Of a DNA stretch of 64,000 nucleotides, positions 5,145-50,780 are shown in pieces; within the stretch, counting starts at the first letter, position 1, and every line of letters begins with the position of its first letter. The notes beneath the pieces were generated by a model, which did no database searches, was not told where the DNA came from, and saw only the letters and a list, made by a program, of their open reading frames with translations. The DNA is taken from positions 1 through 64,000 of the IMG/VR virus record IMGVR_UViG_3300035670_000130. One strand, given 5' to 3'. The translations under genes were made by a program, and so were the position numbers. Source of the DNA: a virus.

Positions 5145-8100
5145 TTAAATAATTCCACCACAAGAAATAGACATGGCATTTTCATTATCAGTTATTTCTT
5201 GAGTCGTAAGCACACGATCCCAGATCGCTACTTTGCCAATATTTCCCCGAAAATTCCATGTTGATGATGTTACCGTTTGTGGGCCTATTGCCAACGGAAA
5301 CGTAGAGGGTTGAGTAATTCCACTGCCAGACTGAGAAGTGGTCAGCGACTGTAAAACTCCGTCGATCCTAACCTTTTGCCTATCAGTATTAATAACTTCG
5401 GCTTGATCTACAATTACTGTAATAATATTTCCTGTCGTGTCACTTAGGATCAACGTCGGAGTTGACTGCCTTAATCGATCAGTTGTTGTTCCTGTTCCGG
5501 TAGATACGTCTATTCCCCCGCTGTTGCCCCTAATGTAAATACCACCCTCGGTAGTAGAAGACGGATCGCCTTTAGATAACAAGTCGCCTATTGGATACTG
5601 TGAATTAACAGGGCCGACTGCGATCATGATTGTATATTGAGCCGATGCCCCAGAAAAGACATCGTCTAATATGTCGCCAAAACTCAGTCCGTTTCTGTTT
5701 GCATAAACAAACTTAAACGACGGAGTGTTATTTAATTCCGTCAACGTATGCAACAAGTTTTGCTGGGAATCGGTTGTGTAATTAATCGTACTTCCAGGAG
5801 CGGTAAATGGAGCAACAACGGTCGCCCCTTGGGTTCCTGAATATTGCGCCGCATCCAAAAATGCAACAAGCCCACTTCCGGTTGGGGTATAAATACCACC
5901 CAAGACAGTAAACGTGCCAGCAGCAACATCTCCAACCGGATAAGGCGGAGATGTATTGCCAACAACAGTAATCGTTCCCGTACTGGCACCAGTAGGAATA
6001 GTTGCAGTAATCTCGGTATCGCTAACAACAGTAAAGTTCGTCAAGTTTATAGTGCCAATTTTTACCCCTGTTGCATTAGTCGTAAAGTTAGTACCAGTAA
6101 TCGTAATAGAGGTGAGGGAATAACCTGTATTTGGGCTAAGTCCAGACACCGTCATAACAGAAGCATTAACCGTAAATGTTCCTGCGTTTACATTTGCCGG
6201 TGGAACAGAATATGAAGTGTTACCAAGCACTGTCAATGTCCCAGTCTCGGTATTAGATGGAACCGTGGCCGTAATTTGACTACTGGAAACAATAGTGAAA
6301 TTGGTCAGCGCAACCGCTCCAATCGTGACCCCCATCGCATAATTAAGCCCTGTACCATTAATGGTAATAGAAGTAGACTGTCCGTAGGTGTGTGATGTCG
6401 GAGTAAAGTCACTAACCGTCATAACAGGAGCATTGACACTAAACACCCCAGCTACAACATCATCCGGTGTAGACGGCAACCCTGTATCTCCCAAAACAGT
6501 AAGATTACCGGTAACTGCATTAGCTGGAACAGTGGCGGTTACATGGGTGCTGGAGACAACGGTAAAGTCAGTTAAAGCAATAGCTCCAATCGTGACCCCC
6601 ATGGCATAATTCAATCCGGTTCCGTAGATATTGACGGTAGTGGTCTGTCCAGAGGTGTGGAATGTCGGGTTGTAACTAGTTACAGTCATCTCAGGAACAC
6701 CAAAGGTAAAAGTTCCTGCGTTGATGTCACTAGCTGGATTCGGCAACTGATCGTTAGCCAGAATGATAATATCGCCTGTCCCAGCTAAATAAGACACCCT
6801 TGCCGTGACCTGAGTTGGCGAGACGATGACGTAATTGGTCAGGAAGTAATTATTTATTCTCGCCCCTTCCGACTTGTCTAGGTTAGTGCCGGTAATGACC
6901 ACGTCTTGAGATTGTCCAACTACTCCAAAATTGGGAACGATACTTGTTACCGTCATGACTGGAGCGACCACTAGGTCAGGCGACGAGTCAATGGTGCGCC
7001 CCCATCCCCTGCCAACAGTAGCGTTCATCTGATAAACCGTAACGTTAACATCCTCCTGGACAACTCCGAAATCCATGATCTGCCTTGTGGCAGTATAGTT
7101 AACAAAATTCTGATTGGAGGTAAGCGTTCCACCGCCGAGAATAGCAACCTCATATTGCTCTGAAGTCTCACTCATTGGCAATCCAGTGAACGCACTGGCG
7201 TACCCAGATCGTCGATCTCTCCGCACCCAGGAAATAGTCATGTCCCCATCTTGATTTTTCACCACTTCTACACTGGCTGGTGAGTAAGGTTTGTTGCAAT
7301 AAAAAGCAAGCTGGGGAATCGTATAGTAATCGGTAATAGAAGACTCTATTGCCCCAGTGCCAACAGCTTTAAACCGAATCTCCCTACCAAGATCATTTGG
7401 GAGCATATCTACCCGCAGAAGTGGACTAGACAGGCAAACAACGTCACTATCAATAGCATGACTACCCATAGCCCACTCCGTCCCACGAACACCCCGACGG
7501 AGGTAACTAATGGTATAAGTCCCCTCTCCGGTCAGCGTGGCATCTCTGGCCATAATAAACTCGTCTCCAACCAGGAAGAGAAGACCCCTGTTGTCATCAA
7601 ATTTTTGCTGGGTAACCGAAGATAGCTGACCATTTACCCCATAGACAACAAAACTCTGGGATGTCTGCAAGCTCGACAACCCAGACACGTCCATAGGCGG
7701 TGGAGCAGTACCAAGCTTACCAACAACAGTAGAACCGGACACACCACCTACCGAGTCGTAACTAGCACCTCCATCACGACTCATGACAATAGTGCCACCC
7801 CGCCAGCCCTCACTGCCAACTACAGCCACATATACGGAATTGTCGGGATCCGTATCGTTGATCAAATGAATGTCAAGTGGGATAAGGGTTGCCGTTCCAG
7901 GCGTTCTAACGACAGGCGGGGCATAAGATGTCGCAATTTCGGTAACAGGCACTGGGGCTGCGTTTAAATCTGGGAAAGAGGGAATGATGGACGGATCTGG
8001 TGGCGGAGGGACTAATGCCATTGTGCTTGTACAAACACCTTTAACCACAACACGGTAGTCATTTGCAATTAAGACTTCGGTCAACCTATAAACACGACAG

Positions 8101-21235: not shown

Positions 21236-21535
21236 TTATTCTAATTTGATTAACTGACCAACGGAAATGCCTTTGGTGTGACTTTGAACAACTACCCCAG
21301 CACCAAGGCGGGGATCGTTGCAGGCAACCCACTTGGCAGGATGCAACTCATGAGCGAGAGCGCAAAAAAGCCAGATGGGGCCACGACCACTAAGCACAAG
21401 ACCCTGGTCAAAGGAGAGTCCCAGTTCAGCCAACTGGGAAACAGCACCAGCGAGGGAAGAAGGTTCGATGACTCCACCGGGAATAGAAAAGTCAATCACC
21501 GCAAAACCATCAAACTGCTCAAGACTGAAGTCCAT
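21236..21535 (-). CDS. csx3: Csx3/Crn3-family protein (CRISPR ring nuclease homolog)
   Basis: 99 aa. GLVLSGRGPIWLFCALAHELHPAKWVACNDPRLGAGVVVQSH aligns almost residue for residue with my recollection of A. fulgidus Csx3: GVVISGRGPIWLHCFLAHKYAHTPFVAVYDPRLGAVVVQSH. Confidence 0.8.
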   Translation of the reverse strand: MDFSLEQFDGFAVIDFSIPGGVIEPSSLAGAVSQLAELGLSFDQGLVLSGRGPIWLFCALAHELHPAKWVACNDPRLGAGVVVQSHTKGISVGQLIKLE

Positions 21536-24977: not shown

Positions 24978-25528
24978 AACAGATTCTTTATTAAGCTTGG
25001 ATGTCCGGTATCCGCTGAGAGAATTACGCTGATTTTTTCTTCGGCTCTGGACAGCCAAGATTTTTGCATTTTTTCCACTAGCTCAACTTTTCGCAATGCG
25101 GTTTGACTGGTAGATTCAGTCCGTTCTACCCTAGCACGAAGATCGTCAAGTGTATCGTCGATCTGGGAAAAGCGAGGTTGTATTTGATTGTAAAGACCAA
25201 TTAGTCCCTCCTGGACTGCCTGTTTCGTGGATTCGTGATTTTCCTGCTTAAATCGCAACCTGCCTAACTCGACCGACTCTTCCTTTCGCCTTTCCGATTC
25301 CATCCTGGCTCGATTAACGAAAAATCCAACAACACCAGCGAGGATGAGGGCTAAGACCTCTCCACTGAACAATCCGTCGATCAATCTCTCTAAAATATTC
25401 TGACTGTTTGGAGTAGCCGTAACCGAAACAGCATAAGCCATGACAAAGATAAAGGCGAGAAGCACCCTTGTCGCAAAACTAGAGATAAACAGAATGATTT
25501 GTTTTAACTGTTCCACTGGAATATCCAA
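24938..25528 (-). CDS. Membrane / coiled-coil protein; start uncertain
   Basis: 196 aa. Two hydrophobic helices ([24 protein letters not shown] and [14 protein letters not shown]) are followed by a coiled coil. The start is TTG or GTG. It overlaps the terL 3' end and, convergently, the thyX 3' end. Confidence 0.5.
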
Positions 25529-28271
25529 CTAAAGGTGCATCACCATCAACAATAATTGTATTTCGTGGATTAGTCACTTGCTCAAAAGCCCCAGTGGCTG
25601 CGTCAACAATATCGTTTACCCTTGGCCGGCGCATACCATCGAAGGACTCTACTGCCGACAGGAATTCACCATTCCAGTCGCCTCTAATCAGAAAAACATA
25701 GCCGAGTCTCGCCTGAGTTGCGAGCGGCAAAGCCCTTTGCAACTTAGACTTATCTGGTTTAATTGCCTTGACATCGTAGCGAACATCAAGCTTTTCAATC
25801 TCCTTGGCAAAGGACTCTTCAACGATCTTGCCAGATGCTCCACCTTCCAATTCAAACCTGATCTTTGTCCTGACTCCATCAGCGATTGCACATCCCCTGA
25901 TCGGGCCGATCACTTCACCTCCTTTTACCTGCATAACTTGCAAGTCGAAGATGTAAATATTGGTGCCAATCATGCCCATCAGGCAACCTGCCGTAGAGCA
26001 ACTATCACTGCCTGCGTCCTCTCTTGCGGTGGCCGCCAAATCCCAAAATCTAATTTTAATGAGGGGTTCTCTCGGCAACTCTTCATAGTCAATAATCTGA
26101 AACCAGTTTCGATCAAAGACGATCCCAGCATCATGTCGGATTTTCCAGTTACCAAACAATAACCGTTGCTTCTCAACCTCCTCCAGGGAATTGAGATTGG
26201 ACAGATACTGCGGGTTGACCCGTAGCAACGCTGGGTTATCAAAAATACTAGCGGCAATAAAACTAAAGCTTTTGACCATATCGTCAAAAGTCACAAGTCC
26301 ATTAGATGCCTCGACCACCGGGGCTAAACTGTCGTAATGCTCCTCGATCAAAGCCTCCTTGGTGTCATCCCAATGAACCTGATTATTCAATCGCACGAAA
26401 TATCTTGTGACACCGCTTCTCTCTGGAATTGGATAACCAGTCTCCGGGTTCCACCACCATTGAATAAAATTAGCAACCCAAGAGTCTGCATCTGGGTTCA
26501 TCGTCGCCCGCACCTGGGGTTTTACTCCGCAACCAGAACGATTCCGGGAAAGCATATAAAAAAAACTCTCTTCACTAAAATGACACAATTCGTCAAAACC
26601 AATCCGTGCGAACTGCGCTCCCTGATATTCGTAAACCGTGTCTTCATGTCTAATATGACGAAAGGCTATCTGACTGTTGTATTTCTCCCAACGCCAAGTA
26701 GGGGGCTTACTCACGAACCTCCCACCAATATTGCGATACAAGTTCTTTGACTCATCCACCAACCCACCAGGATTAGTCAACTCGGGATAACTCTTCCTGA
26801 AAATTACGCAATTATATCCTATGGACTTAATATACTTTTGTTTAGCACTATCCAACAATAGAAATAGGCTGTTATGCGTTGTGTTGTAGCCGTCGCAAAC
26901 ATAAAGCCTGTTTGGATTGCTGACGACAATACATCTTGCGAAGTCAACATCGGTCGGCTCAATACTGACAAGTCCTTTTCCCGGCCATGAATTACCACCA
27001 TTGAACTGACCATGCGCCAACGCCTTCTCTCTTTTTCTTGGAAGAGAGAATAGCAGTTCAAGATGGTTTCCCTGAACAAACACAGTATAGGCAAGTTTTC
27101 CTTCTCTTTTTTCGCCGCAGTGGGTATAACACGGAGTTCGACTACCAATCCTTGCCATATAGCCAAGGCTTCTCACAAGATCCGAGACCTGCTCCGCAAG
27201 TCTAGGGCTTGTTGTAGTGTAAGAAACCTCTCGTTTTCCAACATCACCAACGGTTCCATCGGTGTCAAACAACCCTTGTGCAAGGTTATAGCGAAACTCA
27301 AGCGGAGCGGATAGGTAACCTTCGCTGAATTCCTTATCCCAGCACCTAACACCACGGTATCTATTGTTATGAACCCAAGCCTTAAACCATGGAACCCTCG
27401 TCAAATGAACCTGGGTAATCGGCAGATAGCCGTCTTGAACCGGCGGAATAGTTTTTTGAGCAGCCCCCTCTCCGGCAATTTCCTTGACCTTTTCAGCTAT
27501 AAAGTCATCAGTGGTAGTCAGTATAAAACTGCCGCCCCTCTCTTCCCCAAAATGACCATCACCAATCATCGCACCATAGACATAGGCTCTTTCGTTGTCC
27601 CTAAACGATCTTGCGGTAAATTGCAACGGAGCGTTTATCGGAAAAATAAACCTTCGTCCTTTTTTTGTTTCATTGATCAACCACTTGGTATCCCGGACTC
27701 TGGCTCTGGTAATGTAATTCTTGTTCCAGCCACGGGGGTCGAGATTTGAATAAACAAAATTCTCGCCATTGCAGGTTTTCCGTCTACTATTACACCGAGC
27801 TTCCCAAAACGACCACAGGTGATCCTCTGTAGCCTCTACCGACGTACCATCTTCAAATGTAAGCAAATAAAATTGCATCATTCCCCGATCTTGTATTTGC
27901 AATACCTCTTGGTATTGCCCGTCGGGATTCATTATTTTTTCGCCAACAGTTAAGTCAGAAAAGTCGATCCATTTACCATCCCAGCGCAAAACCTTAGTAT
28001 CCAAACCGGCAACGACATCTGGCACGGAGGACAATTCGACACCATGTCTTATGGCGTAGCCAAGCTTGGCACACCTATTTGCCTTACCGCTACCCGCAGC
28101 CCCGCCCACAAAAAGAACATCCGCCTCATGATGATACATCTGCTCTTGCTTGCCGGGTTGAGGCGGAGGCAGAGTCCAGTCGGCACCGGATCGGGAATCC
28201 GCCTTTGACTTATTGGCTGCCCCGATCCGCCGCTGGTTTTTAAGATTGAGTCGGCTGGTTAATGCGTTCAT
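25479..28271 (-). CDS. terL: Terminase large subunit, interrupted by an intein
   Basis: ATG 28271 (MNALTSRL). The Walker A FVGGAAGSGK is split from SLFLLLDSAKQKY...VIFRKSYPEL by about 404 aa. The C-terminal nuclease half includes IRFWDLAAT and GDWN. Confidence 0.85.
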   Translation of the reverse strand: MNALTSRLNLKNQRRIGAANKSKADSRSGADWTLPPPQPGKQEQMYHHEADVLFVGGAAGSGKANRCAKLGYAIRHGVELSSVPDVVAGLDTKVLRWDGKWIDFSDLTVGEKIMNPDGQYQEVLQIQDRGMMQFYLLTFEDGTSVEATEDHLWSFWEARCNSRRKTCNGENFVYSNLDPRGWNKNYITRARVRDTKWLINETKKGRRFIFPINAPLQFTARSFRDNERAYVYGAMIGDGHFGEERGGSFILTTTDDFIAEKVKEIAGEGAAQKTIPPVQDGYLPITQVHLTRVPWFKAWVHNNRYRGVRCWDKEFSEGYLSAPLEFRYNLAQGLFDTDGTVGDVGKREVSYTTTSPRLAEQVSDLVRSLGYMARIGSRTPCYTHCGEKREGKLAYTVFVQGNHLELLFSLPRKREKALAHGQFNGGNSWPGKGLVSIEPTDVDFARCIVVSNPNRLYVCDGYNTTHNSLFLLLDSAKQKYIKSIGYNCVIFRKSYPELTNPGGLVDESKNLYRNIGGRFVSKPPTWRWEKYNSQIAFRHIRHEDTVYEYQGAQFARIGFDELCHFSEESFFYMLSRNRSGCGVKPQVRATMNPDADSWVANFIQWWWNPETGYPIPERSGVTRYFVRLNNQVHWDDTKEALIEEHYDSLAPVVEASNGLVTFDDMVKSFSFIAASIFDNPALLRVNPQYLSNLNSLEEVEKQRLLFGNWKIRHDAGIVFDRNWFQIIDYEELPREPLIKIRFWDLAATAREDAGSDSCSTAGCLMGMIGTNIYIFDLQVMQVKGGEVIGPIRGCAIADGVRTKIRFELEGGASGKIVEESFAKEIEKLDVRYDVKAIKPDKSKLQRALPLATQARLGYVFLIRGDWNGEFLSAVESFDGMRRPRVNDIVDAATGAFEQVTNPRNTIIVDGDAPLVGYSSGTVKTNHSVYL
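26871..28082 (-). mobile_element. Intein with LAGLIDADG homing endonuclease in the terL P-loop (candidate class 3)
   Basis: Removing A78-N481 restores GGAAGSGK|SLFLLL. Block B is ATEDHLW and the C-terminus is YVCDGYNTTHN|S. LAGLIDADG motifs are YVYGAMIGDGHF and LAQGLFDTDGTV. The Trp (B12), Cys (ARCIVV, F4) and Thr (TTHN, G5) fit the class-3 WCT triad. The exact N-junction is uncertain: a block-A-like AGLDTKVL occurs 24 aa further in. Confidence 0.75.
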
Positions 28272-28545
28272 CTGGAATAGTGGACACAAAGGCACATAGG
28301 CTCTGCGTATCAAAAGGATCTGTTACGGGGGCTTGCAGTCCCAGTAGTTCCTCAATCAGTTTATTTACGGATGCGACTACACGCTCAAAAGACTCGACCG
28401 CAGAAATAGCTGAAACATGCAAAACCGCATTGTCTAACGACTCCAACGCAGTCTTGGTGGCAGATACAGCTTTAATTAACTCGGATCGAAGCGGTTCATC
28501 AACAACTGACAGGTTTTCAATCAAACGCTGATACTCTTCTTGCAC
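28240..28545 (-). CDS. Hypothetical protein upstream of terL (small terminase candidate by position only)
   Basis: 101 aa, GTG start with a GGGGGGA SD. It overlaps the terL start. Confidence 0.5.
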   Translation of the reverse strand: MQEEYQRLIENLSVVDEPLRSELIKAVSATKTALESLDNAVLHVSAISAVESFERVVASVNKLIEELLGLQAPVTDPFDTQSLCAFVSTIPDERINQPTQS

Positions 28546-30473: not shown

Positions 30474-30929
30474 GTTTCAGTCCCGATCACCGGGATTAAC
30501 CTTTTGATCGACTTGATCGCTTTCCCAAAAAATGGGTTTTTTTACAAGTTTCAGTCCTGATCACCGGGATTACCCTTTTGATCGGATTACTCTCTAATGT
30601 TTCAGTCCCGATCACCGGGATTAACCTTTTGATCGTTGCCTCTGGACTTCTTATCTTGTTTTCTAATCCACGGTTTCAGTCCCGATCACCGGGATTACCA
30701 TTTTGATCGGATGAATTACTGGATTAAGCCGATTTAATAGAGGCAGTTTCAGTCCAGATCACCGGGATTACCATTTTGATCGGCGACTAAAACTTCGGGG
30801 CTGATGCCCGGAAACTCAGTGTTTCAGTCCCGATCACCGGGATTACCCTTTTGATCGCCACAGTAATTGCTCGGTTCTGCCTGTGTTTAAACGTTTCAGT
30901 CCAGATCACCGGGATTACCCTTTTGATCG
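30474..30929 (-). CRISPR. CRISPR array, 7 repeats of 37 nt and 6 spacers (37, 14, 37, 36, 38, 35 nt)
   Basis: Repeats GTTTCAGTCCCGATCACCGGGATTA(A/C)C(C/A)TTTTGATCG occur at 30474, 30548, 30599, 30673, 30746, 30821 and 30893. There is an internal 5-bp hairpin TCCCG-ATCAC-CGGGA. The strand is inferred: the minus-strand reading ends ...GGGACTGAAAC and is co-directional with the nuclease gene. Confidence 0.93.
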
Positions 30930-31026
30930 TCTGGCTTCCCTATCCTTTGCTAGGCAATGATTTGGGATATGATTTTGGCAAACCCCAGCAATATGCAGTT
31001 TTCAAGGTTCAGAGTCGGCAATCAAG

Positions 31027-32706
31027 TTATCCTGTTAAATCCCACAAGCTAAGCTGTATGGATGTTTCGGGGTCTTGGCAAAGGGGGGAGGGTTTTTGCC
31101 CCCGCTTTGATTTGCCAATTTTTGCCGATTCAAAAAACTCCGGTGATCGGGACTCGCTAGTAATCTCTAGCGGTGGGGATGAATCCCCTTCCTGCTGACC
31201 CCCAATGCTATTACTAGACTTATGCGAGGCAGAGGCAGGCTTTTGACTTTCGTCGATTCCCCCAACGAAACTGGGGTATCTTTCCATATTGGAAACCTGT
31301 AAACGGTGCGGATGGAGATTGTGTTTCAGTCCCGATCTTATGGGATGAATTTTATAAGCATTACTCCAATCGGCACGGTTATGAATGTTGATCGCCGCAT
31401 TAATATCAGCATTCATTGAATGCCCGCAGGCGACACAACTAAAACTTGATTGACTTTTGCGGTTCTCCTTTGCAACGTGACCGCAATTAGAACAGGTTTG
31501 GCTGTTGTGGTGAGATCGTACAAGGTGAACTTCATTGTTGATGGTTTTGGCCTTTGCTTCCACCATCACCTTTAATCGTCCACAGGCAACGTCTTTTAGG
31601 GAACGATTTAGCCCCCGCTTCTGTGCTTGATTATTACGGGCATAGCCTTTGCCATCCTCACGGAGTTTGGCTTTAGCTTTGCGTCCCATGTTATTGAAGC
31701 TGTTATCTTCAATGGCAATGCCGCCAAAAGAGGTAACAAAGTAGGTACTTTCCTTGTGCCAGAAAGCATTCCGTTGACGAGCTACCGTTTCGTGGAGTCT
31801 GGCAACTTTTGCTTTTTGCTTCTGATAGTTTTTCCCCTTGACACCTCCGCCTTCCCTTAATCGGCGGGACATTTTTCGCTGTTCCCGGCGTAGCTTTTTA
31901 ATTTGCTTGGATAGGAATTTAGGAGCATCAACTTGCCTACCGTAATCGGTGGAAGTAGCAAACCGAACGCCAGGGTCAATAGCAACAGCAACATCAGGCA
32001 TTTTGACATTAGGAACCGGCCAATCATGGCGAATCGCTAACTGCAAATACCAACCAGTAGCCTTGCGGCAAATTCTGGCAGTGCAAATTTTTGAGTCCTT
32101 GGGGACTCTTTCTAACCCCTTTGTTCTGATATTACCCAGCAAAGGGAATCTGATTCTTGTGTTGCCAGATATTTTTGCCGTGCATTCTCCGTTGCTTAGG
32201 GATGTCAACGGAAATCGCTCGCCCTTGAACTTGGGACATTTGGCGTTAACCCGTTTTTTATCCTTGTAAGCTTTCCATGACTCTAGCAAATCATCTCCGA
32301 TCCCACCCTTGAACCGAGTACAGAAATTATCTAGCTGGGTTGCTCGATAAATTACAGACCGTGGCGCACCGTCCACATTTTGCGGATGGCGAATTGAGCA
32401 GGCTGGGTAATGTTCGTTGTGACGACGGTTGTAAGCAGTAATTGCACAACAGGCACCAAACACAGCTTTTCCGTCAACTTTATTTGGAAACCACTGCCAA
32501 GCCTCGTTGCCCTCCATCGGGTCAAATCCTGCTTTTTTCCGCCAGTCCTGTTGGTCTTTCTCCAACAAAACCGCCAAGCCATTATTCCAAACCCTACGCC
32601 CCCGGTCTAACCAGTCCGTCAGCGTTCTAGCTTGAGACTGGTTTGGATAAAGCTTGAACTCCAAGGTCTTGATTGGTCGCTTGTCGCCTGATTCCTTGCG
32701 GGGCAT
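31027..32706 (-). CDS. tnpB: TnpB/Cas12-family RNA-guided nuclease (RuvC D-E-D intact, zinc ribbon), CRISPR-adjacent
   Basis: 559 aa from ATG 32706 (MPRKESGDKRPIKTLEFKLYPNQSQARTL). RuvC-I is VAVAIDPGV and RuvC-II is GGIAIEDNSFNNM. The zinc ribbon is CSNCGH...FSCVACGH and RuvC-III is NADINAAINI. The track ORF extends to 32823, but that extension lacks family signal. The last ~120 aa are low complexity and overlap repeat-like RNA elements. Confidence 0.88.
   Translation of the reverse strand: MPRKESGDKRPIKTLEFKLYPNQSQARTLTDWLDRGRRVWNNGLAVLLEKDQQDWRKKAGFDPMEGNEAWQWFPNKVDGKAVFGACCAITAYNRRHNEHYPACSIRHPQNVDGAPRSVIYRATQLDNFCTRFKGGIGDDLLESWKAYKDKKRVNAKCPKFKGERFPLTSLSNGECTAKISGNTRIRFPLLGNIRTKGLERVPKDSKICTARICRKATGWYLQLAIRHDWPVPNVKMPDVAVAIDPGVRFATSTDYGRQVDAPKFLSKQIKKLRREQRKMSRRLREGGGVKGKNYQKQKAKVARLHETVARQRNAFWHKESTYFVTSFGGIAIEDNSFNNMGRKAKAKLREDGKGYARNNQAQKRGLNRSLKDVACGRLKVMVEAKAKTINNEVHLVRSHHNSQTCSNCGHVAKENRKSQSSFSCVACGHSMNADINAAINIHNRADWSNAYKIHPIRSGLKHNLHPHRLQVSNMERYPSFVGGIDESQKPASASHKSSNSIGGQQEGDSSPPLEITSESRSPEFFESAKIGKSKRGQKPSPLCQDPETSIQLSLWDLTG
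31126..31154 (-). ncRNA. Inverted degenerate copy of the CRISPR repeat (candidate tracrRNA/omega-RNA anti-repeat)
   Basis: The plus strand cgattcaaaaaactCCGGTGATCGGGACT compares with the reverse-complement repeat cgatcaaaaggttaatcCCGGTGATCGGGACTgaaac. There is a 15-nt perfect core (31140-31154) plus a flanking CGAT.CAAAA match. The loop sequence (GTGAT versus ATCAC) shows that the copy is truly inverted. Confidence 0.6.
31323..31359 (-). repeat. Degenerate direct copy of the CRISPR repeat inside the nuclease CDS
   Basis: The plus strand GTTTCAGTCCCGATCttatGGGATgaaTTTTaTaag shares its first 15 nt with the array repeats and is in the same orientation. It encodes ...IRSGLKHN... on the other strand. 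Confidence 0.6.
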
Positions 32707-32756: not shown

Positions 32757-32903
32757 ATGAACGGCAAGCCCAAACGAGAAAAAAGGGTAGAGATAAGGTT
32801 GAATGACGCTGAATACAAGGCACTCAGCGATTACGCTCAATCCAAGAACATGGCGATTGCCGAAGTGTTGCGGGATTTTGTAAAGAGGTTGATCAATGAT
32901 TGA
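32757..32903 (+). CDS. Ribbon-helix-helix (CopG/MobC-like) protein, 48 aa
   Basis: Below the track size cut-off. My translation is MNGKPKREKRVEIRLNDAEYKALSDYAQSKNMAIAEVLRDFVKRLIND, a beta-strand followed by two helices in the RHH pattern. It is divergent from the nuclease gene, 50 bp away. Its stop overlaps the next ATG. Confidence 0.65.
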   Translation: MNGKPKREKRVEIRLNDAEYKALSDYAQSKNMAIAEVLRDFVKRLIND

Positions 32904-37284: not shown

Positions 37285-38676
37285 CTATTCCCGGTAAATT
37301 AATTGTGCTGTCTCCCCAGTCTGCCCCTCCCATCTTTCTAGGCTGATAGAACAATAATCAGGAGACGATTCTAAGCCATACACAGTAAGCCCCAGAGCCT
37401 CCCCAGCCAGGATACTGATACCAGAGCCAAGGAAAGGGTCTAGGACGGTTCTAGGACTATCGTTAGTGCCAGCACCAGCGGGGAGGAAAAGGTTAAATCC
37501 CTCTATGGCTAGTGCCACAGGTTTTTGGGTAGGATGGCATCTTTTTTGACCATGTTCACTATCTTTAATCATGCCGTTCCAGGTGTGCTTAAACAGCCTA
37601 GCGGCATTAGGTTTATTAACCCACGCAAGCTCACAATCGGCATAGTCCCCAGTATTGTTTTTATCCCATACAAACCAGCAGGGGGAAGGGGGCAATACAT
37701 TGGCATAGTGGTTGGCTCCCCACCATAGATGCACAGCCCTTGGGAATAATTCTAGGTAGAGCTTAGATGCCTTAACTGCCGTATCGGTAGTATCGTCGCC
37801 CATCACTGGAGCATATTTATTAACTGCACAGACGTTACTGCTCCCAAGGGTATTATCACTTTTGACGATATTGATGCCATAGGGGGGGTCAGCCCAGATA
37901 AAATCAATAACGGCATTTTTGGTTAGTGCTTTGATATTTTGCTCGGATAGGCTATCGCCACACATCAAGTAGTGCCTACCAAGTTGCCATATATCACCTA
38001 CCTGTACTCTACCCGTAGCACCGCTTTCACCATCAAAGTCATCTAAGTCATCATCGGCATCCCCTTCATCATCATCGGCATCATATTCATCATCTTCATC
38101 TAAATCCATATCGCCGTCCCTTTGTGCCATCAACATATTGGCTATGGTATCCATATCAATATCAAAGGCAGTTATGGACTCTCCCTCTGATAGCAGTTCG
38201 TCTACTTGATTAAACAAGTCGCCGCTATTGAATAGGGACATCAAGGCATCATCACCCAGGGCTGCGGCGGTGGTAGCGTTATGGTCAATACTATATGCGA
38301 CAGCTTTTGCCCTAGTCTCAGAACGGGCTACAGTGGCGGGAATCAGCCAGTCAATAACCTTGCCTGCCTTGTTTTTTACAACGTCGATGTTACCAGGCGG
38401 ATTATTGGCATCTTGCTTAAACAGGGTTTTACAAACATTTAGTGTACGGTCGTGCCCCTCGACCAATGTCAATTTGATGCTGTCGTCAGCCAAGATGGCA
38501 TCAACTTCCCACCGCTGGTATTCCTCTGGCAGAAATACCAGATCGACCTGAACAGGGTCACGGAAGTTATGAGCAAGTACACTGGCAGTTGTTTTACTGG
38601 TGCTGTGTTTTTTACTGTTGCCGTCCAATCCAATTAAGCGGCTTAATTTTATTTGTGCGTATGTAAGCATGATCAT
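37285..38676 (-). CDS. DNA methyltransferase (N6/N4, DPPY type) with ParB-like N-terminal domain and poly-acidic linker
   Basis: 463 aa. Motif IV is FIWADPPYGI and motif I is VLDPFLGSGISILAGE. The linker is DEDDEYDADDDEGDADDDLDDFDGE. Confidence 0.8.
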   Translation of the reverse strand: MIMLTYAQIKLSRLIGLDGNSKKHSTSKTTASVLAHNFRDPVQVDLVFLPEEYQRWEVDAILADDSIKLTLVEGHDRTLNVCKTLFKQDANNPPGNIDVVKNKAGKVIDWLIPATVARSETRAKAVAYSIDHNATTAAALGDDALMSLFNSGDLFNQVDELLSEGESITAFDIDMDTIANMLMAQRDGDMDLDEDDEYDADDDEGDADDDLDDFDGESGATGRVQVGDIWQLGRHYLMCGDSLSEQNIKALTKNAVIDFIWADPPYGINIVKSDNTLGSSNVCAVNKYAPVMGDDTTDTAVKASKLYLELFPRAVHLWWGANHYANVLPPSPCWFVWDKNNTGDYADCELAWVNKPNAARLFKHTWNGMIKDSEHGQKRCHPTQKPVALAIEGFNLFLPAGAGTNDSPRTVLDPFLGSGISILAGEALGLTVYGLESSPDYCSISLERWEGQTGETAQLIYRE

Positions 38677-50147: not shown

Positions 50148-50780
50148 ATGGAGAGGTTAAACAACGACCAATACTTTACCGATAGAAGGCTGGTTGACTC
50201 CCTAGGGAATCATCTCGACATTATCGGGGACTGTCCCGATTACGTCAGGGTGCTAGAGCCGTGTTGTGGGAATGGATTGATGTCAGATGCCTTGATTGAC
50301 ATGGGCTGCGAAGTCCTTTCTGCTGACATCGACGAAAACCTAGATTATCCAGACTGCTATCTGGATGCCACGGTTCCCTATAATCTACCCAGGGGTTGGG
50401 ATCGTCCAGACTGGGTGATTACCAATCCACCTTACAGTCAGCCTACATGCCAAAAGATAATCGAAAATGCCTACGACCGATGCCAGATAGGGATAGCGAT
50501 GCTTCTTCGCTTAAGTTATCTCGAACCGTGTAGGGGTAGGGCTGAATTCCTTAATTCGGCTTGGTTATCTCATTTAATTATTTTCAATCCCCGTCCCCGA
50601 TTCCGTCTTGATACCAAGGGATCCGACAATTGCACAGTTGCCTGGTTTGTTTGGCGAAAGGGAAAAGGGCACGGAACTCAAGTAATAAACTGCACTAATT
50701 GGAACAATGAACGAAATCTTAGACCATATCCAGTCGGAGCGACTGGAGTTACTCAAAGAGCAGTCAGTCATGCTGTCTGA
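50148..50780 (+). CDS. SAM-dependent DNA N6-adenine methyltransferase (NPPY)
   Basis: Motif I is VLEPCCGNG and motif IV is VITNPPYSQ. Confidence 0.75.
   Translation: MERLNNDQYFTDRRLVDSLGNHLDIIGDCPDYVRVLEPCCGNGLMSDALIDMGCEVLSADIDENLDYPDCYLDATVPYNLPRGWDRPDWVITNPPYSQPTCQKIIENAYDRCQIGIAMLLRLSYLEPCRGRAEFLNSAWLSHLIIFNPRPRFRLDTKGSDNCTVAWFVWRKGKGHGTQVINCTNWNNERNLRPYPVGATGVTQRAVSHAV

Follow-up and report, generated by a model that had tools for sequence, protein, structure and literature searches.

A putative phage-borne miniature type V CRISPR-Cas module with a V-U2 (C2c8)-like effector and a type I-D-like array

When a nuclease gene of the TnpB/Cas12 kind lies directly upstream of a short CRISPR array in a phage genome, does the nuclease use the array, or are the two merely neighbors? 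The question is raised by a window of 64,000 nucleotides (positions 1 to 64,000 of the IMG/VR virus record IMGVR_UViG_3300035670_000130), analyzed here as a whole. On its minus strand, an effector gene (31027–32706) is followed by a 97-nt gap and an array (30474–30929). We consider it likely that a cyanophage resembling CL131 here carries a miniature type V CRISPR-Cas system of a V-U2 (C2c8)/Cas12p-like kind, with this locus as its interference module.

A TnpB-derived nuclease in a CL131-like phage

The locus is real and probably functional. The same sequence was assembled independently in Logan SRR10854513 (L183), without a difference from 1 kb upstream of the gene, through the gene and the leader, to halfway along the fifth repeat, and the repeat variants of the window array recur there. 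The initial annotation had described the neighbors as phage genes, and terminase (with a LAGLIDADG intein), tail proteins, PhoH, NrdB and a primase-polymerase were found in the window, with only 5 nt to spare between the end of the array and the stop codon of nrdB. The closest isolated phage by terminase is Aphanizomenon phage CL131 (38.6% identity). A Csx3 ring nuclease is also encoded by the window phage, which implies that it is engaged in CRISPR conflict with its host. The reported lack of cas1, cas2, cas4, cas6 and tnpA held within the scope covered. Among 67 selected ORFs of at least 85 aa, none matched Cas1, Cas2, Cas4 or Cas6 in the best 25 of 71 matched PADLOC families (E-values down to 2e-10), outside of which weak matches could lie. 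tnpA is taken to be absent because the 25 PHROG families listed include no transposase families besides the effector’s own TnpB-type ones. There is no second copy of the effector within the 64-kb window.

Read from its ATG, the effector is 559 aa in length, and profile searches, an AF2 model and Foldseek identify it as a probable TnpB-derived, Cas12-like nuclease of a V-U2/C2c8-like family; an alternative GTG start extends the ORF to 32823. Every motif initially quoted for its TnpB/Cas12 core was located, including the N-terminus KTLEFKLYPNQ, the RuvC segments VAIDPGV (aa 241–247), IAIEDNS (330–336) and NADINAA (432–438), and the CxxC...CxxC zinc ribbon formed by CSNCGH (405–410) and CVACGH (424–429). 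The RuvC D-E-D triad is intact, as had been proposed, with D244, E333 and D434 invariant, together with the four zinc-ribbon cysteines, in 26 aligned homologues. A C-terminal tail (aa 459–559) is disordered. The AF2 model has a pLDDT of 72, falling below 35 in the tail, and is of low confidence at residues 67–106.

The profile and structure comparisons suggested in the initial annotation were run and converged on Cas12u2/C2c8 profiles and on a Cas12p structure. Pfam matches comprised HTH_OrfB_IS605, OrfB_IS605 and Cas12f1-like_TNB, and both PHROGs and Pfam label the protein a transposase. NCBIfam guided_TnpB gave 184 bits, above its cut-off of 100, and V_cas_c2c8, at 284.9 bits (E 1.4e-84), fell short of its cut-off of 350. 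Cas12u2, a PADLOC model without a curated cut-off, was the best of the PADLOC Cas12 models (340 bits, E 7.9e-102), aligning residues 13–448 of the protein with positions 2–429 of the 445 in the profile. The best PDB match was Cas12p (9jfs; phmmer E 1.7e-29, profile E 1.7e-63), which also ranked first in Foldseek (E 5e-22, TM 0.54–0.57), with TnpB and Cas12f next.

Shmakov et al. are said to have reported type V-U2 (C2c8) in 2017, and the group is reportedly mostly cyanobacterial. The window locus shares with it a TnpB-sized RuvC protein beside an array, without adaptation genes. Proteins under the NCBI name C2c8 are 34–35% identical to the effector, and P0026, which is among them, matches it in the long tail, the C-terminal motif and the ribbon-helix-helix (RHH) partner as well. 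The window locus differs in the N-terminal REC region and in its NCBIfam score (285 against the cut-off of 350). A phage precedent is provided by cyanophage vB_AphaS-CL131, whose V-U2 locus combines an effector with an array and includes no further cas gene (Sulcius et al. 2018, PMC6293099). That locus likewise lies near the large terminase gene, encodes an effector 35.9% identical to the window’s and has QLTLW codons just before its array. However, its repeat, GTTAGGATGCCCGCAGGATGTCATATAGTTGGCAAG, is unrelated and not host-like according to its authors, and its annotated effector has 466 aa and no tail. The same authors found no tracrRNA and left the direction of the array open (PMC6293099).

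The closest solved structure by both profile and fold, Cas12p, belongs to the “Cas12 hacker” systems (type V-P), in which a phage-encoded miniature Cas12 is activated by host thioredoxin (bioRxiv 10.1101/2025.01.20.633832; PDB 9jfs, 9jg3). That work places it early on the path from TnpB to Cas12 and notes that its C-terminal domain is disordered (bioRxiv 10.1101/2025.01.20.633832). The enzyme cleaves dsDNA, and its family as published is a close-knit set of 12 proteins. The window effector is also phage-encoded and can be inferred to use the same tracrRNA design, but identity in the structural alignment is 19%, and the REC insertion is shorter by ~100 aa, the stretch between the first strand and the WED segment measuring ~79 aa as opposed to ~178 aa in Cas12p. 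When the N-terminal 170 aa were compared with 9jfs, only the first strand and WED segment aligned and nothing corresponded to the thioredoxin-binding (TB) domain. Likeness to TnpB and its omega-RNA (IS200/IS605, e.g., ISDra2; PDB 8h1j, 8exa) extends to the core fold (target-normalized TM 0.71–0.75), the guided_TnpB cut-off, which is passed, and a predicted scaffold encoded over the 3' end of the gene. Unlike TnpB, the window effector is single-copy and without transposon ends or tnpA, it carries an extra N-terminal insertion and the C-terminal tail, and its guide would come from a CRISPR array with a leader, whereas that of TnpB comes from flanking DNA.

Conserved partners and a predicted scaffold RNA

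The arrangement of gene, ~100 nt and same-strand array recurs in many different phage contigs, over 30–81% protein identity. The array lies directly downstream in 15 of the 19 best IMG/VR matches (L008–L026), and arrays also follow the gene in L001, L004, L005, L172, L173, L174, L180 and L181; the short contigs L178 and L179 end within reach of the first repeat only. The C2c8 locus L176 is an exception, the 1.5 kb downstream of it being free of arrays. The repeats of these loci fall into four or more unrelated types. Relatives share a phage neighborhood near terminase, with arrays (portal, capsid and terminase genes lie nearby in L001, L004 and L005), and the window’s own clade (41–81% identity) is found almost only in metagenomic, phage-like contigs. 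The initial annotation named near-identical copies at many loci without arrays as a sign of an ordinary insertion sequence; the relatives are single-copy and nearly always have an array, and the effector protein clusters have 1–4 members, each on one or two contigs.

A second gene travels with the effector. A 48-aa RHH (CopG/NikA-like) protein is encoded divergently at 32757–32903 on the plus strand, and tblastn found an RHH gene in the same divergent arrangement, immediately upstream of the effector gene, in L172 (88%), L181 (74%), L173 (69%), L004 (64%), L001, L002 and L003 (60% each) and the C2c8 locus L176 (38%); the L003 copy has a weak NikA-like Pfam match. The RHH gene had been noted before as one of the flanking genes. 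Its presence stands, but its status as a plain neighbor does not: judged by this synteny, it is a conserved partner of the effector. The protein is probably a transcriptional regulator of the module.

The ORF tail holds further features. QLSLWD codons (31039–31056, minus strand) specify a C-terminal motif that is kept as a peptide, in the form QLxLWD, even in relatives at 31–35% identity, while its Leu and Gln codons vary synonymously between loci. Amino-acid identity is 0.69 at the motif as opposed to 0.45 in the tracr region. One may hypothesize that QLSLWD is a beta-sliding-clamp-binding motif; two related phages encode their own sliding clamp beside or near the effector gene. A 36-nt in-frame insertion (31307–31342, minus strand; ~aa 455–466, including IRSGLKH) falls in an alignment gap in all homologues and is specific to the window, and within it the final 15 nt of the repeat recur without change (GATCGGGACTGAAAC, 31323–31337).

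Covariation, cofolding and codon conservation indicate that the 3' part of the ORF, about the last 150–250 nt, encodes a structured RNA. The scaffold RNA had initially been placed between gene and array; the scaffold now predicted, which resembles a tracrRNA or omega-RNA, overlaps the 3' end of the ORF, lying wholly inside its tail (31126–31276, minus strand), and the gap is a type I-D-like leader. In order on the minus strand, it comprises a hairpin (31260–31276) with a GUUUC loop complementary to the last 5 nt of the repeat (GAAAC), its putative pseudoknot partner, a GNRA hairpin (31245–31254), stem S1 (31175–31188), stem S2 with an AGAUUA loop (31155–31172) and, after S2, an anti-repeat (31126–31154). 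Across 10 loci, RNAalifold and pair counts gave pairing in 93.7% of cells vs. 82.8% in shuffles, a level reached by 0 of 500 shuffles, and slid partners gave 31–50%. Both sides change in 17 pairs, and stem S2 is 100% paired with five of its six pairs compensatory. Third codon positions are more conserved in the scaffold region (0.57) than in the core (0.46), amino-acid identity is lower (0.45 vs. 0.71), and codon periodicity is damped. The single-sequence fold of the predicted tracrRNA is no better than shuffles (z = -1.2).

The elements expected to contact the crRNA follow the repeat of each locus. The loop pentamer is GTTTC where repeats end in GAAAC (six loci) and CTTTC where they end in GAAAG (L001, L004 and L181), a covariation that amounts to one or two evolutionary events. 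Likewise, anti-repeats and repeats match by type (CAGTCCC/GGGACTG, CAACCG/CGGTTG and CAATCCCT/AGGGATTG). The anti-repeat comprises 6–8 nt in all clades and ~27 bp in the window’s clade; in several clades it is no longer than 5–8 nt and, judged by duplex energy alone, did not stand out from background. Duplex energies are -29 to -44 kcal/mol with own-clade repeats as opposed to -17 to -24 kcal/mol with the unrelated repeats of L174, L005 and L011-type loci, and the tracrRNA and crRNA cofold at -94.1 vs. -67.3 kcal/mol for the monomers. In the solved Cas12p structure, the tracrRNA is built from several stems, joins the crRNA in a repeat:anti-repeat duplex and forms a pseudoknot with its positions -1 to -4 (bioRxiv 10.1101/2025.01.20.633832); in silico, the GUUUC loop and the anti-repeat reproduce this duplex and pseudoknot design. 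The link between nuclease and array proposed in the initial annotation is borne out by synteny at 30–81% identity and by RNA elements that covary with the repeat of each locus, which together support a functional tie between the two.

A leader and array of the type I-D kind

The seven 37-nt repeats reported initially were found at 30474–30929 (minus strand), beginning exactly 97 nt past the stop codon. Their gene-strand consensus is CGATCAAAAGGGTAATCCCGGTGATCGGGACTGAAAC, and the six spacers are 35, 38, 36, 37, 14 and 37 nt in length; no match to such an array arose in 100 shuffles. The array shows some wear: all but one of its seven repeats deviate by 1–2 nt from the consensus, in three of them the hairpin stem is altered, and one spacer is shortened to 14 nt. 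Rfam CRISPR-DR52 matches it weakly on the minus strand.

The gap itself (30930–31026, minus strand) is a leader of the type I-D kind, with motifs TCTGAACCTTGAAAA (30999–31013) and GGTTTGCCAAAATC (30971–30984, -55 to -42 from repeat 1). The type I-D traits present are a 37-nt hairpin repeat, an 8-nt handle ending in ACUGAAAC, a leader motif ~44–54 nt upstream and ~35-nt spacers. The closest counterpart is type I-D CRISPR1 of Synechocystis sp. PCC 6803 plasmid pSYSA, whose repeat is identical at 24 of the 3' 25 nt and differs in the 5' 12 nt. The leader motifs TCTGAACCTTGAAAA, identical over its 15 nt, and GGTTTGCCAAA are shared as well, although the upstream one lies at -81 in the window and at -140 in pSYSA. 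Counted from the first repeat, the element TTTGCCAAA sits at -53 or -54 in 10 of 10 phage loci of the window’s clade (-53 in the window itself) and at -54 in pSYSA. Seven of the 10 loci have a second copy with at most one mismatch at -153 or -154, inside the ORF tail; that of pSYSA lies at -157.

Because gap and repeats closely resemble this type I-D locus, spacer acquisition by host Cas1-Cas2-Cas4 is likely. Adaptation of the window array probably depends on the host, and the system, which had been taken to be self-contained, probably is not, its leader and repeat imitating host type I-D arrays. There is some precedent for such borrowing, in that type I-D adaptation has been proposed to serve V-K, type III and V-U2 arrays, and a V-U2 array was found to share a spacer with a V-K array (Hsieh & Peters, bioRxiv 10.1101/2021.02.06.429022). 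The Cas12k (V-K) CAST arrays resemble the window locus in being cyanobacterial type V arrays without adaptation genes, with 37-nt repeats and ~35-nt spacers; their repeat ends are I-D-like, and a leader motif is conserved ~44 nt upstream of the first repeat. In contrast, Cas12k has a dead RuvC domain and acts together with a Tn7-like transposase, while the window element is a phage, and V-K repeats lack the Cas6 hairpin that the window repeat keeps. Turnover in a sister clade is polarized, as L015 and L017 have six distal spacers in common and differ in the gene-proximal ones. The spacer search proposed initially was run and yielded no protospacer for any window spacer.

Proposed mechanism, alternative readings and meaning

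In the preferred reading, a miniature type V interference module, the leader would drive transcription of the array on the same strand as the gene, and the 3' region of the gene would yield a tracrRNA descended from a TnpB omega-RNA. Two contacts known from the solved Cas12p sgRNA, an anti-repeat duplex and a pseudoknot, would pair the 3' end of the crRNA repeat with this tracrRNA, and the complex would cut spacer-matching DNA beside a 5' PAM. The predicted PAM, GTN, is that of type I-D adaptation, Cas12k and Cas12p. Host type I-D Cas1-Cas2-Cas4 would act in trans to insert new spacers at the gene-proximal end, host Cas6 or RNase III may help to process the crRNA, and the divergent RHH protein probably regulates expression. 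Its likely targets would be competing phages, or other mobile elements that share the infected cell.

A more elaborate version, possible but doubtful as one joint claim, depicts the module as a hybrid parasite of the host’s class 1 CRISPR. The omega-RNA-derived tracrRNA would have evolved to pair with host-type I-D repeats, and therefore the phage could use host Cas1-Cas2-Cas4, which would add GTN-flanked spacers to the copied I-D leader and array. The pseudoknot would cover exactly the GAAAC of the 8-nt handle left by Cas6, and crRNAs processed by host Cas6, possibly from the host’s own arrays, may be used. Phage clades would re-tune the anti-repeat on switching to the repeat family of a new host. 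Finally, the conserved QLxLWD peptide, borne on a disordered tail whose coding sequence also holds the tracrRNA and leader elements, would anchor the nuclease at the beta sliding clamp and so direct it to the replicating DNA of rivals.

It is unlikely that the array instead serves host class 1 machinery, as a mini-array that would arm host I-D/III complexes with crRNAs against rival phages or an RNA anti-CRISPR decoy soaking up Cas6/Cas proteins, with the TnpB-like gene separate and using its own omega-RNA. The repeat hairpin, the 8-nt handle and the leader are nearly those of Synechocystis type I-D CRISPR1, cas-less phage arrays exist, e.g., in cyanophage N-1 (PMC6293099), repeat-like sequences occur in Microcystis phages that have no such effector, and the window phage carries Csx3. 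Nevertheless, the gene-array synteny holds over 30–81% protein divergence and at least four unrelated repeat types, and the anti-repeat and loop pentamer change with the repeat, which would not be required of a merely neighboring array. Moreover, the mutation in three of the seven repeats breaks the Cas6-type hairpin, yet is a single mismatch in the ~27-bp tracr duplex. Use of the array by host machinery and by the nuclease are not mutually exclusive. A solitary virus-borne mini-array or RNA anti-CRISPR lacking a cognate effector was also considered and rejected, since a conserved effector with a matching anti-repeat adjoins the host-like repeats.

Less probable still is an RNA-guided protein that binds without cutting, a programmable repressor or roadblock like Cas12m, Cas12k or TldR that might, for example, silence host or rival genes. 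Early papers held V-U effectors to be too small to cleave and maybe regulatory (quoted in PMC6293099), several small Cas12 relatives are binders, and the RHH partner hints at regulation; against this stand a D-E-D triad and zinc ribbon that are invariant in 26 of 26 homologues, the dsDNA cleavage by Cas12p, the closest characterized relative, and the nuclease activity of the next closest folds, TnpB and Cas12f. An ordinary IS200/IS605-type (IS1341-like) tnpB insertion that came by chance to lie beside an unrelated, decaying array is very improbable and largely refuted, for all the transposase labels of Pfam and PHROGs, the guided_TnpB score above cut-off, the TnpB-like position of the scaffold and the worn repeats, by the lack of tnpA and of a second copy in 64 kb, clusters of 1–4 members, the syntenic phage position of relatives near terminase with arrays, a conserved leader in place of the right transposon end and flanking guide, and RNA elements that covary with the repeat.

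A phage-borne miniature type V module is a kind of system that is already known, V-U2 having been published in CL131 in 2018 (PMC6293099) and Cas12p having been characterized biochemically and structurally (bioRxiv 10.1101/2025.01.20.633832), and these loci leave the basic picture unchanged. What the window copy suggests in addition is how the guide RNA may be built and that the array imitates host type I-D CRISPR. Phage miniature Cas12 systems matter as weapons between mobile elements and as very small genome-editing enzymes, and V-U2 is the one remaining “V-U” group with no mechanism described in the literature searched (2024 review, PMC11641405). The locus offers a testable V-U2 guide design, namely a ~150-nt tracrRNA (31126–31276) with an anti-repeat, a GUUUC:GAAAC pseudoknot and a predicted GTN PAM, and in it a single stretch of DNA serves three functions, as protein tail, predicted tracrRNA and CRISPR leader. 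Type I-D adaptation modules of cyanobacteria have been proposed to feed the arrays of other CRISPR types, an idea that these loci would carry over to phages.

The effector and its phage setting

The 559-aa ORF on the minus strand (31027–32706), described in the initial annotation as a TnpB/Cas12-family nuclease, was confirmed at that length counted from its ATG, and the quoted motifs were all found: RuvC-I VAIDPGV (D244), RuvC-II IAIEDNS (E333), RuvC-III NADINAA (D434), and the zinc ribbon CSNCGH...CVACGH. The invariance of D244, E333, D434 and the four zinc cysteines in 26 of 26 aligned homologues makes an active nuclease the default expectation. Pfam recognized three TnpB domains in the protein, while the best NCBIfam model was V_cas_c2c8 (type V-U2), at 285 bits and under its cut-off of 350; the generic guided_TnpB model passes. 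The best PADLOC model was Cas12u2 (340 bits, E 8e-102, near full length), followed by a Cas12f model (318), Cas12u4 (172), Cas12u3 (91), and Cas12u1 (42). A profile built from the 26 homologues retrieved from the PDB Cas12p, a phage-encoded miniature Cas12 (9jfs, E 1.7e-63), ISDra2 TnpB (8.5e-46), Cas12n (9j09, 1.7e-45), Cas12f (5.6e-32), and LaTranC (7e-19). In the AF2 model of the effector (pLDDT 72), residues 459–559 and 67–106 are disordered or of low confidence, and Foldseek placed the Cas12p-TrxA complex on top, with TnpB and Cas12f next. Only the window protein has a 36-nt in-frame insertion (31307–31342, minus strand; approximately aa 455–466, including IRSGLKH), within which the final 15 nt of the repeat recur without a mismatch (GATCGGGACTGAAAC, 31323–31337); a short duplication (…CATCC…CATCC…) flanks the insertion. 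It could have arisen through a stray recombination or integration that involved the array, or it could represent a pseudo-crRNA encoded in cis.

That the window is phage DNA was borne out by a large terminase with a probable LAGLIDADG intein, tail and baseplate proteins, an endolysin, PhoH, and NrdB, and it also encodes a thymidylate synthase and a primase-polymerase. The reported absence of cas1, cas2, cas4, and cas6 agrees with PADLOC, where none of the corresponding proteins is among the best 25 of 71 matched families (67 selected ORFs of at least 85 aa). No second transposase family occurs among the PHROG families listed for the window, a tRNA search of the window found none, and Rfam gave no match anywhere in it at gathering thresholds and weak CRISPR-DR52 matches alone at relaxed thresholds. 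In the 944-aa terminase (25479–28313, minus strand), the LAGLIDADG homing-endonuclease domain (aa 346–392) precedes the Terminase_6N match (aa 500–740). Defense-related genes include a stand-alone Csx3 of 99 aa (21236–21535, minus strand; PADLOC Csx3, E 8.9e-26). Csx3 proteins are cyclic-oligoadenylate ring nucleases, so the phage copy likely counters host type III CRISPR signaling. The phage also has several DNA methyltransferase-like genes (37285–38676, minus strand; 50148–50780, plus strand; and others) and a match to a model for type IV methyl-directed restriction enzymes, as would fit an arsenal for anti-restriction and defense.

The protein database contains ~22 relatives of the effector at 41–81% identity, in protein clusters of 1–4 sequences on one or two contigs each, followed by proteins named C2c8 by NCBI (34–35% identity). 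Wherever the flanking DNA is long enough, the relatives are surrounded by phage genes: portal, capsid, RusA, and sliding clamp at locus L001; terminase, Bro-N, and ParB at L004; and PhoH, NrdB, terminase, portal, and Thy1 at L005. Each of these three loci has a same-strand array ~100 nt downstream of the effector gene, and the same gene-then-array layout is found in L172, L173, L174 (33 repeats), L180 (33 repeats), and L181, as well as in an IMG/VR sister clade (L011–L026) whose proteins are 30–34% identical over their full length, including the tail. Insertion of an IS element as the source of the gene was rejected on the grounds of these small clusters, the phage neighborhoods, and the same-strand arrays of the relatives; effector and array are a phage CRISPR module rather than an IS or transposon. 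Neither the locus nor the array was matched in isolated phages by megablast or blastn, and a GTDB genome scan with the effector, in which the matches listed were swamped by generic TnpB, gave nothing reliable on host genomes. A divergent RHH gene of 48 aa lies upstream of the effector on the plus strand (32757–32903) and occupies the same position in L172, L181, L173, L001–L004, and the C2c8 locus L176; we infer that its product is the regulator of the module.

A predicted scaffold RNA and a peptide motif in the ORF tail

The initial annotation had placed the scaffold RNA in the gap between gene and array; the evidence puts it within the ORF, at 31126–31276 (minus strand). For ten loci, the final 230 nt of the gene and the gap that follows were aligned, giving a consensus structure of 35 pairs, in which 93.7% of cells are paired versus 82.8% in shuffles (0 of 500 shuffles attain the observed value). 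Sliding the partners by 1–3 columns drops pairing to 31–50%, and both-sided changes occur at 17 of the 35 pairs. The stem S2 (31155–31172, CGCTAG-AGATTA-CTAGCG) exists in four different versions among the loci and is never broken, with five of six pairs compensatory and an invariant AGAUUA loop, and the amino acids encoded across it vary freely as the stem varies (PLEITSE, RSEITEQ, SPEITGR). Codon statistics agree with a structured RNA in the ORF tail: identity at codon positions 1/2/3 is 0.74/0.81/0.46 in the enzyme core (amino-acid identity 0.71) and 0.60/0.65/0.57 in the tail scaffold region (0.45).

The loop of a conserved hairpin at 31260–31276 (CCCC-AGTTTCGTT-GGGG) carries the exact complement of the last five repeat nucleotides of its own locus, GTTTC accompanying repeats that end in GAAAC (window, L172, L173, L174, L178, L005) and CTTTC those that end in GAAAG (L001, L004, L181), a pseudoknot covariation that comprises one or two evolutionary events only. 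The segment directly after S2 complements the repeat just upstream of its last five bases and varies with the repeat family, pairing CAGTCCC with GGGACTG, CAACCG with CGGTTG (L174), and CAATCCCT with AGGGATTG (L180, L013, L018). This anti-repeat is lengthened to ~27 bp in the window clade (31126–31154), where duplex energies are −29 to −44 kcal/mol, compared with −17 to −24 kcal/mol with the unrelated repeats of L174, L005, and L011-type loci. An anti-repeat search on duplex energy alone was positive for the window clade only, but position-specific comparison recovered short covarying anti-repeats in L174, L005, and the L011 clade, which had looked negative. Cofolding of the predicted tracrRNA with a repeat-spacer unit gained 27 kcal/mol over the monomers; its single-sequence fold was no better than shuffles, and a sigma-70 promoter and terminator scan was uninformative. 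A long-range GGCAAA:TTTGCC helix proposed by RNAalifold was set aside, as both of its sides are nearly invariant and TTTGCCAAA is a type I-D leader motif. From these patterns we infer that the 3′ region of the ORF encodes a guide-scaffold RNA tied to the array. In the solved tracrRNA of Cas12p, several stems accompany a repeat:anti-repeat duplex, and the 5′ region of the RNA forms a pseudoknot with crRNA positions −1 to −4 (bioRxiv 10.1101/2025.01.20.633832); the guide design predicted for the window is the same. Such a scaffold is also what a TnpB omega-RNA should look like once its 3′ portion had been separated to become a CRISPR repeat.

The tail of ~110 codons is open in nearly all relatives and ends in QL(S/T)LWD (window codons 31039–31056, minus strand). 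The Leu and Gln codons of this motif vary synonymously (TTG, CTT, CTC, TTA; CAG, CAA) and amino-acid identity climbs back to 0.69; the QLxLWD peptide itself therefore appears to be under selection. It resembles the bacterial beta-clamp-binding motif, QL[SD]LF. A sliding clamp (DNA polymerase III beta) is encoded in two related phages, immediately upstream of the effector in L173 (17–1126) and ~2 kb upstream in L001 (6686–7795); no beta-clamp gene was found in the window. Hypothetically, QLxLWD could bind the beta sliding clamp. In Aphanizomenon phage vB_AphaS-CL131 (L168, MG209611.1), tail-like elements persist past the annotated stop of the effector (~5390–5647), including a copy of the repeat 3′ end (GAGTTGGCAAG) and a hairpin (GGCAAG…CTTGCC); the codons for QLTLW* (CAGCTTACTCTCTGGTGA) stop 8 nt short of the first repeat. 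Truncation or a frameshift may have reduced a tailed protein to the annotated ORF of 466 aa.

The array: host-type repeat and leader, and the spacers

The array stands as initially described, with seven 37-nt repeats at 30474–30929 (minus strand), where chance predicts none, and a gap of 97 nt (30930–31026) between the effector stop codon and the first repeat. The spacers measure 35, 38, 36, 37, 14, and 37 nt. An independent public assembly (L183, Logan SRR10854513) shows no difference along the gene and leader or in the four and a half repeats that follow, and the repeat variants of the window are therefore real. This array is somewhat worn: six of the seven repeats are 1–2 nt off consensus, three of seven carry a change that breaks the short hairpin yet makes one mismatch in the long tracr duplex, and one spacer is cut to 14 nt (30585–30598). 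On the plus strand, the last spacer (nrdB side, 30511–30547) contains CCCAAAAAATGGG and then a run of TTTTTTT, which together resemble a weak terminator hairpin directed at the end of nrdB; the nrdB stop lies 5 nt from the array.

The sole match of a plasmid search was the CRISPR1 array of Synechocystis 6803 pSYSA, which sits directly 3′ of the type I-D operon cas3′-cas10d-cas7d-cas5d-cas6-cas4-cas1d-cas2. The pSYSA repeat (CTTTCCTTCTACTAATCCCGGCGATCGGGACTGAAAC) and the window repeat (CGATCAAAAGGGTAATCCCGGTGATCGGGACTGAAAC) are identical at 24 of the last 25 nt, including the Cas6 hairpin and the 8-nt handle, and the leaders have TCTGAACCTTGAAAA and GGTTTGCCAAA in common. All 10 phage loci of the window clade have TTTGCCAAA at −53 or −54 relative to the first repeat, and pSYSA has it at −54. 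A further copy (at most one mismatch) is at −153/−154 in seven of the 10 and at −157 in pSYSA; in the phage loci this copy lies inside the ORF and encodes conserved “CQN” residues. Judged by sequence, the 97-nt gap is a host-type leader and the window repeat a host-type repeat. The sister-clade repeat (…CTTAAGCCTTATTAGGGATTGAAAC) matches repeat-like sequences in Microcystis phages and resembles Microcystis host repeats. With both repeats host-like, each phage clade therefore seems to copy the repeat family of its own host. Together with a partial protein of 66% identity encoded in a Synechocystis MAG, the window repeat suggests a Synechocystis-like cyanobacterium as the host.

A metagenome scan with the repeat core found two short contigs only (L169, Ga0315909_10257759; L170, Ga0315899_10084352), with similar decayed mini-arrays of the window-type repeat (CGATCAAAGGACTAATCCCGGCGATCGGGACTGAAAC) whose spacers are irregular and very short. 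Among sister-clade phages, an isolated repeat-like copy lies ~515 nt past the array end (L013 8830–8866, L014 5370–5406, L021 8925–8961), and the intervening DNA is conserved. Short sequences resembling L011/L180-type repeats also occur in isolated cyanophages without the effector, namely Microcystis phages MaMV-CH01/DL01/DH01 and Ma-LMM01 and Nostoc phage N1 (for example PP681321.1 40337–40444 and 152629–152707, and NC_008562.1 35767–35948; Nostoc phage N1 16847–16943); those of Ma-LMM01 are annotated as a ‘56 bp repeat unit’. These may be solitary repeat units or mini-arrays.

Spacer targets were found neither in isolated phages, nor in IMG/VR (exact 24-mers), nor in the fetched loci. In IMG/VR, the first 24 nt of window spacers 1–4 had no match, and those of the newest spacers of L001, L004, and L015 matched nothing beyond the L015 contig itself; all spacers against all fetched loci gave self and shared-array matches only, and the arrays of L174, L011, and L180 against isolated phages gave only repeat-like matches in Microcystis and Nostoc phages, with no protospacers. 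Two near-identical IMG/VR phage contigs, L015 (1961–2718) and L017 (7341–7952), have six distal spacers in common and differ in their gene-proximal spacers, four versus two, with no adaptation genes seen in either phage genome. This pattern indicates, as a sequence signature, recent polarized acquisition at the leader end. Since the PAM lies 5′ on the non-target strand for type I and type V systems alike, type V could use spacers chosen by the I-D machinery unchanged. GTN is the PAM of both Cas12p (bioRxiv 10.1101/2025.01.20.633832) and Cas12k (bioRxiv 10.1101/2021.02.06.429022), and by analogy GTN is predicted for the window effector.

Placement among type V systems

The effector is related to the characterized phage nuclease Cas12p. 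Membership in Cas12p proper is unsupported: identity is 19%, the REC insertion is ~100 aa shorter, and the thioredoxin-binding domain of Cas12p has no alignable counterpart in the window protein. By profile, architecture, and phage lineage, the locus is placed as a divergent member of V-U2 (C2c8). The closest isolated phage is CL131 (effector 35.9% and terminase 38.6% identity), whose authors described a putative type V-U2 locus beside its terminase in 2018 (PMC6293099), so this kind of system is already known. As far as could be found in the literature, several features lack an earlier description for V-U2: the guide design, the overlap of three elements (protein tail, tracrRNA, and leader), the mimicry of an I-D leader by a phage, the RHH partner, and the C-terminal motif. 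These features refine a known kind of system and define no new one. The module is not a transposon; it would operate in the tracrRNA-dependent manner of a type V system whose adaptation is outsourced. According to a proposal by Hsieh and Peters, cyanobacterial V-K, type III, and V-U2 arrays are served by type I-D Cas1-Cas2-Cas4; their grounds were 37-nt repeats, ~35-nt spacers, the GTN PAM, and a leader motif close to position −44 (bioRxiv 10.1101/2021.02.06.429022). The window locus fits this proposal and carries it over to phage.
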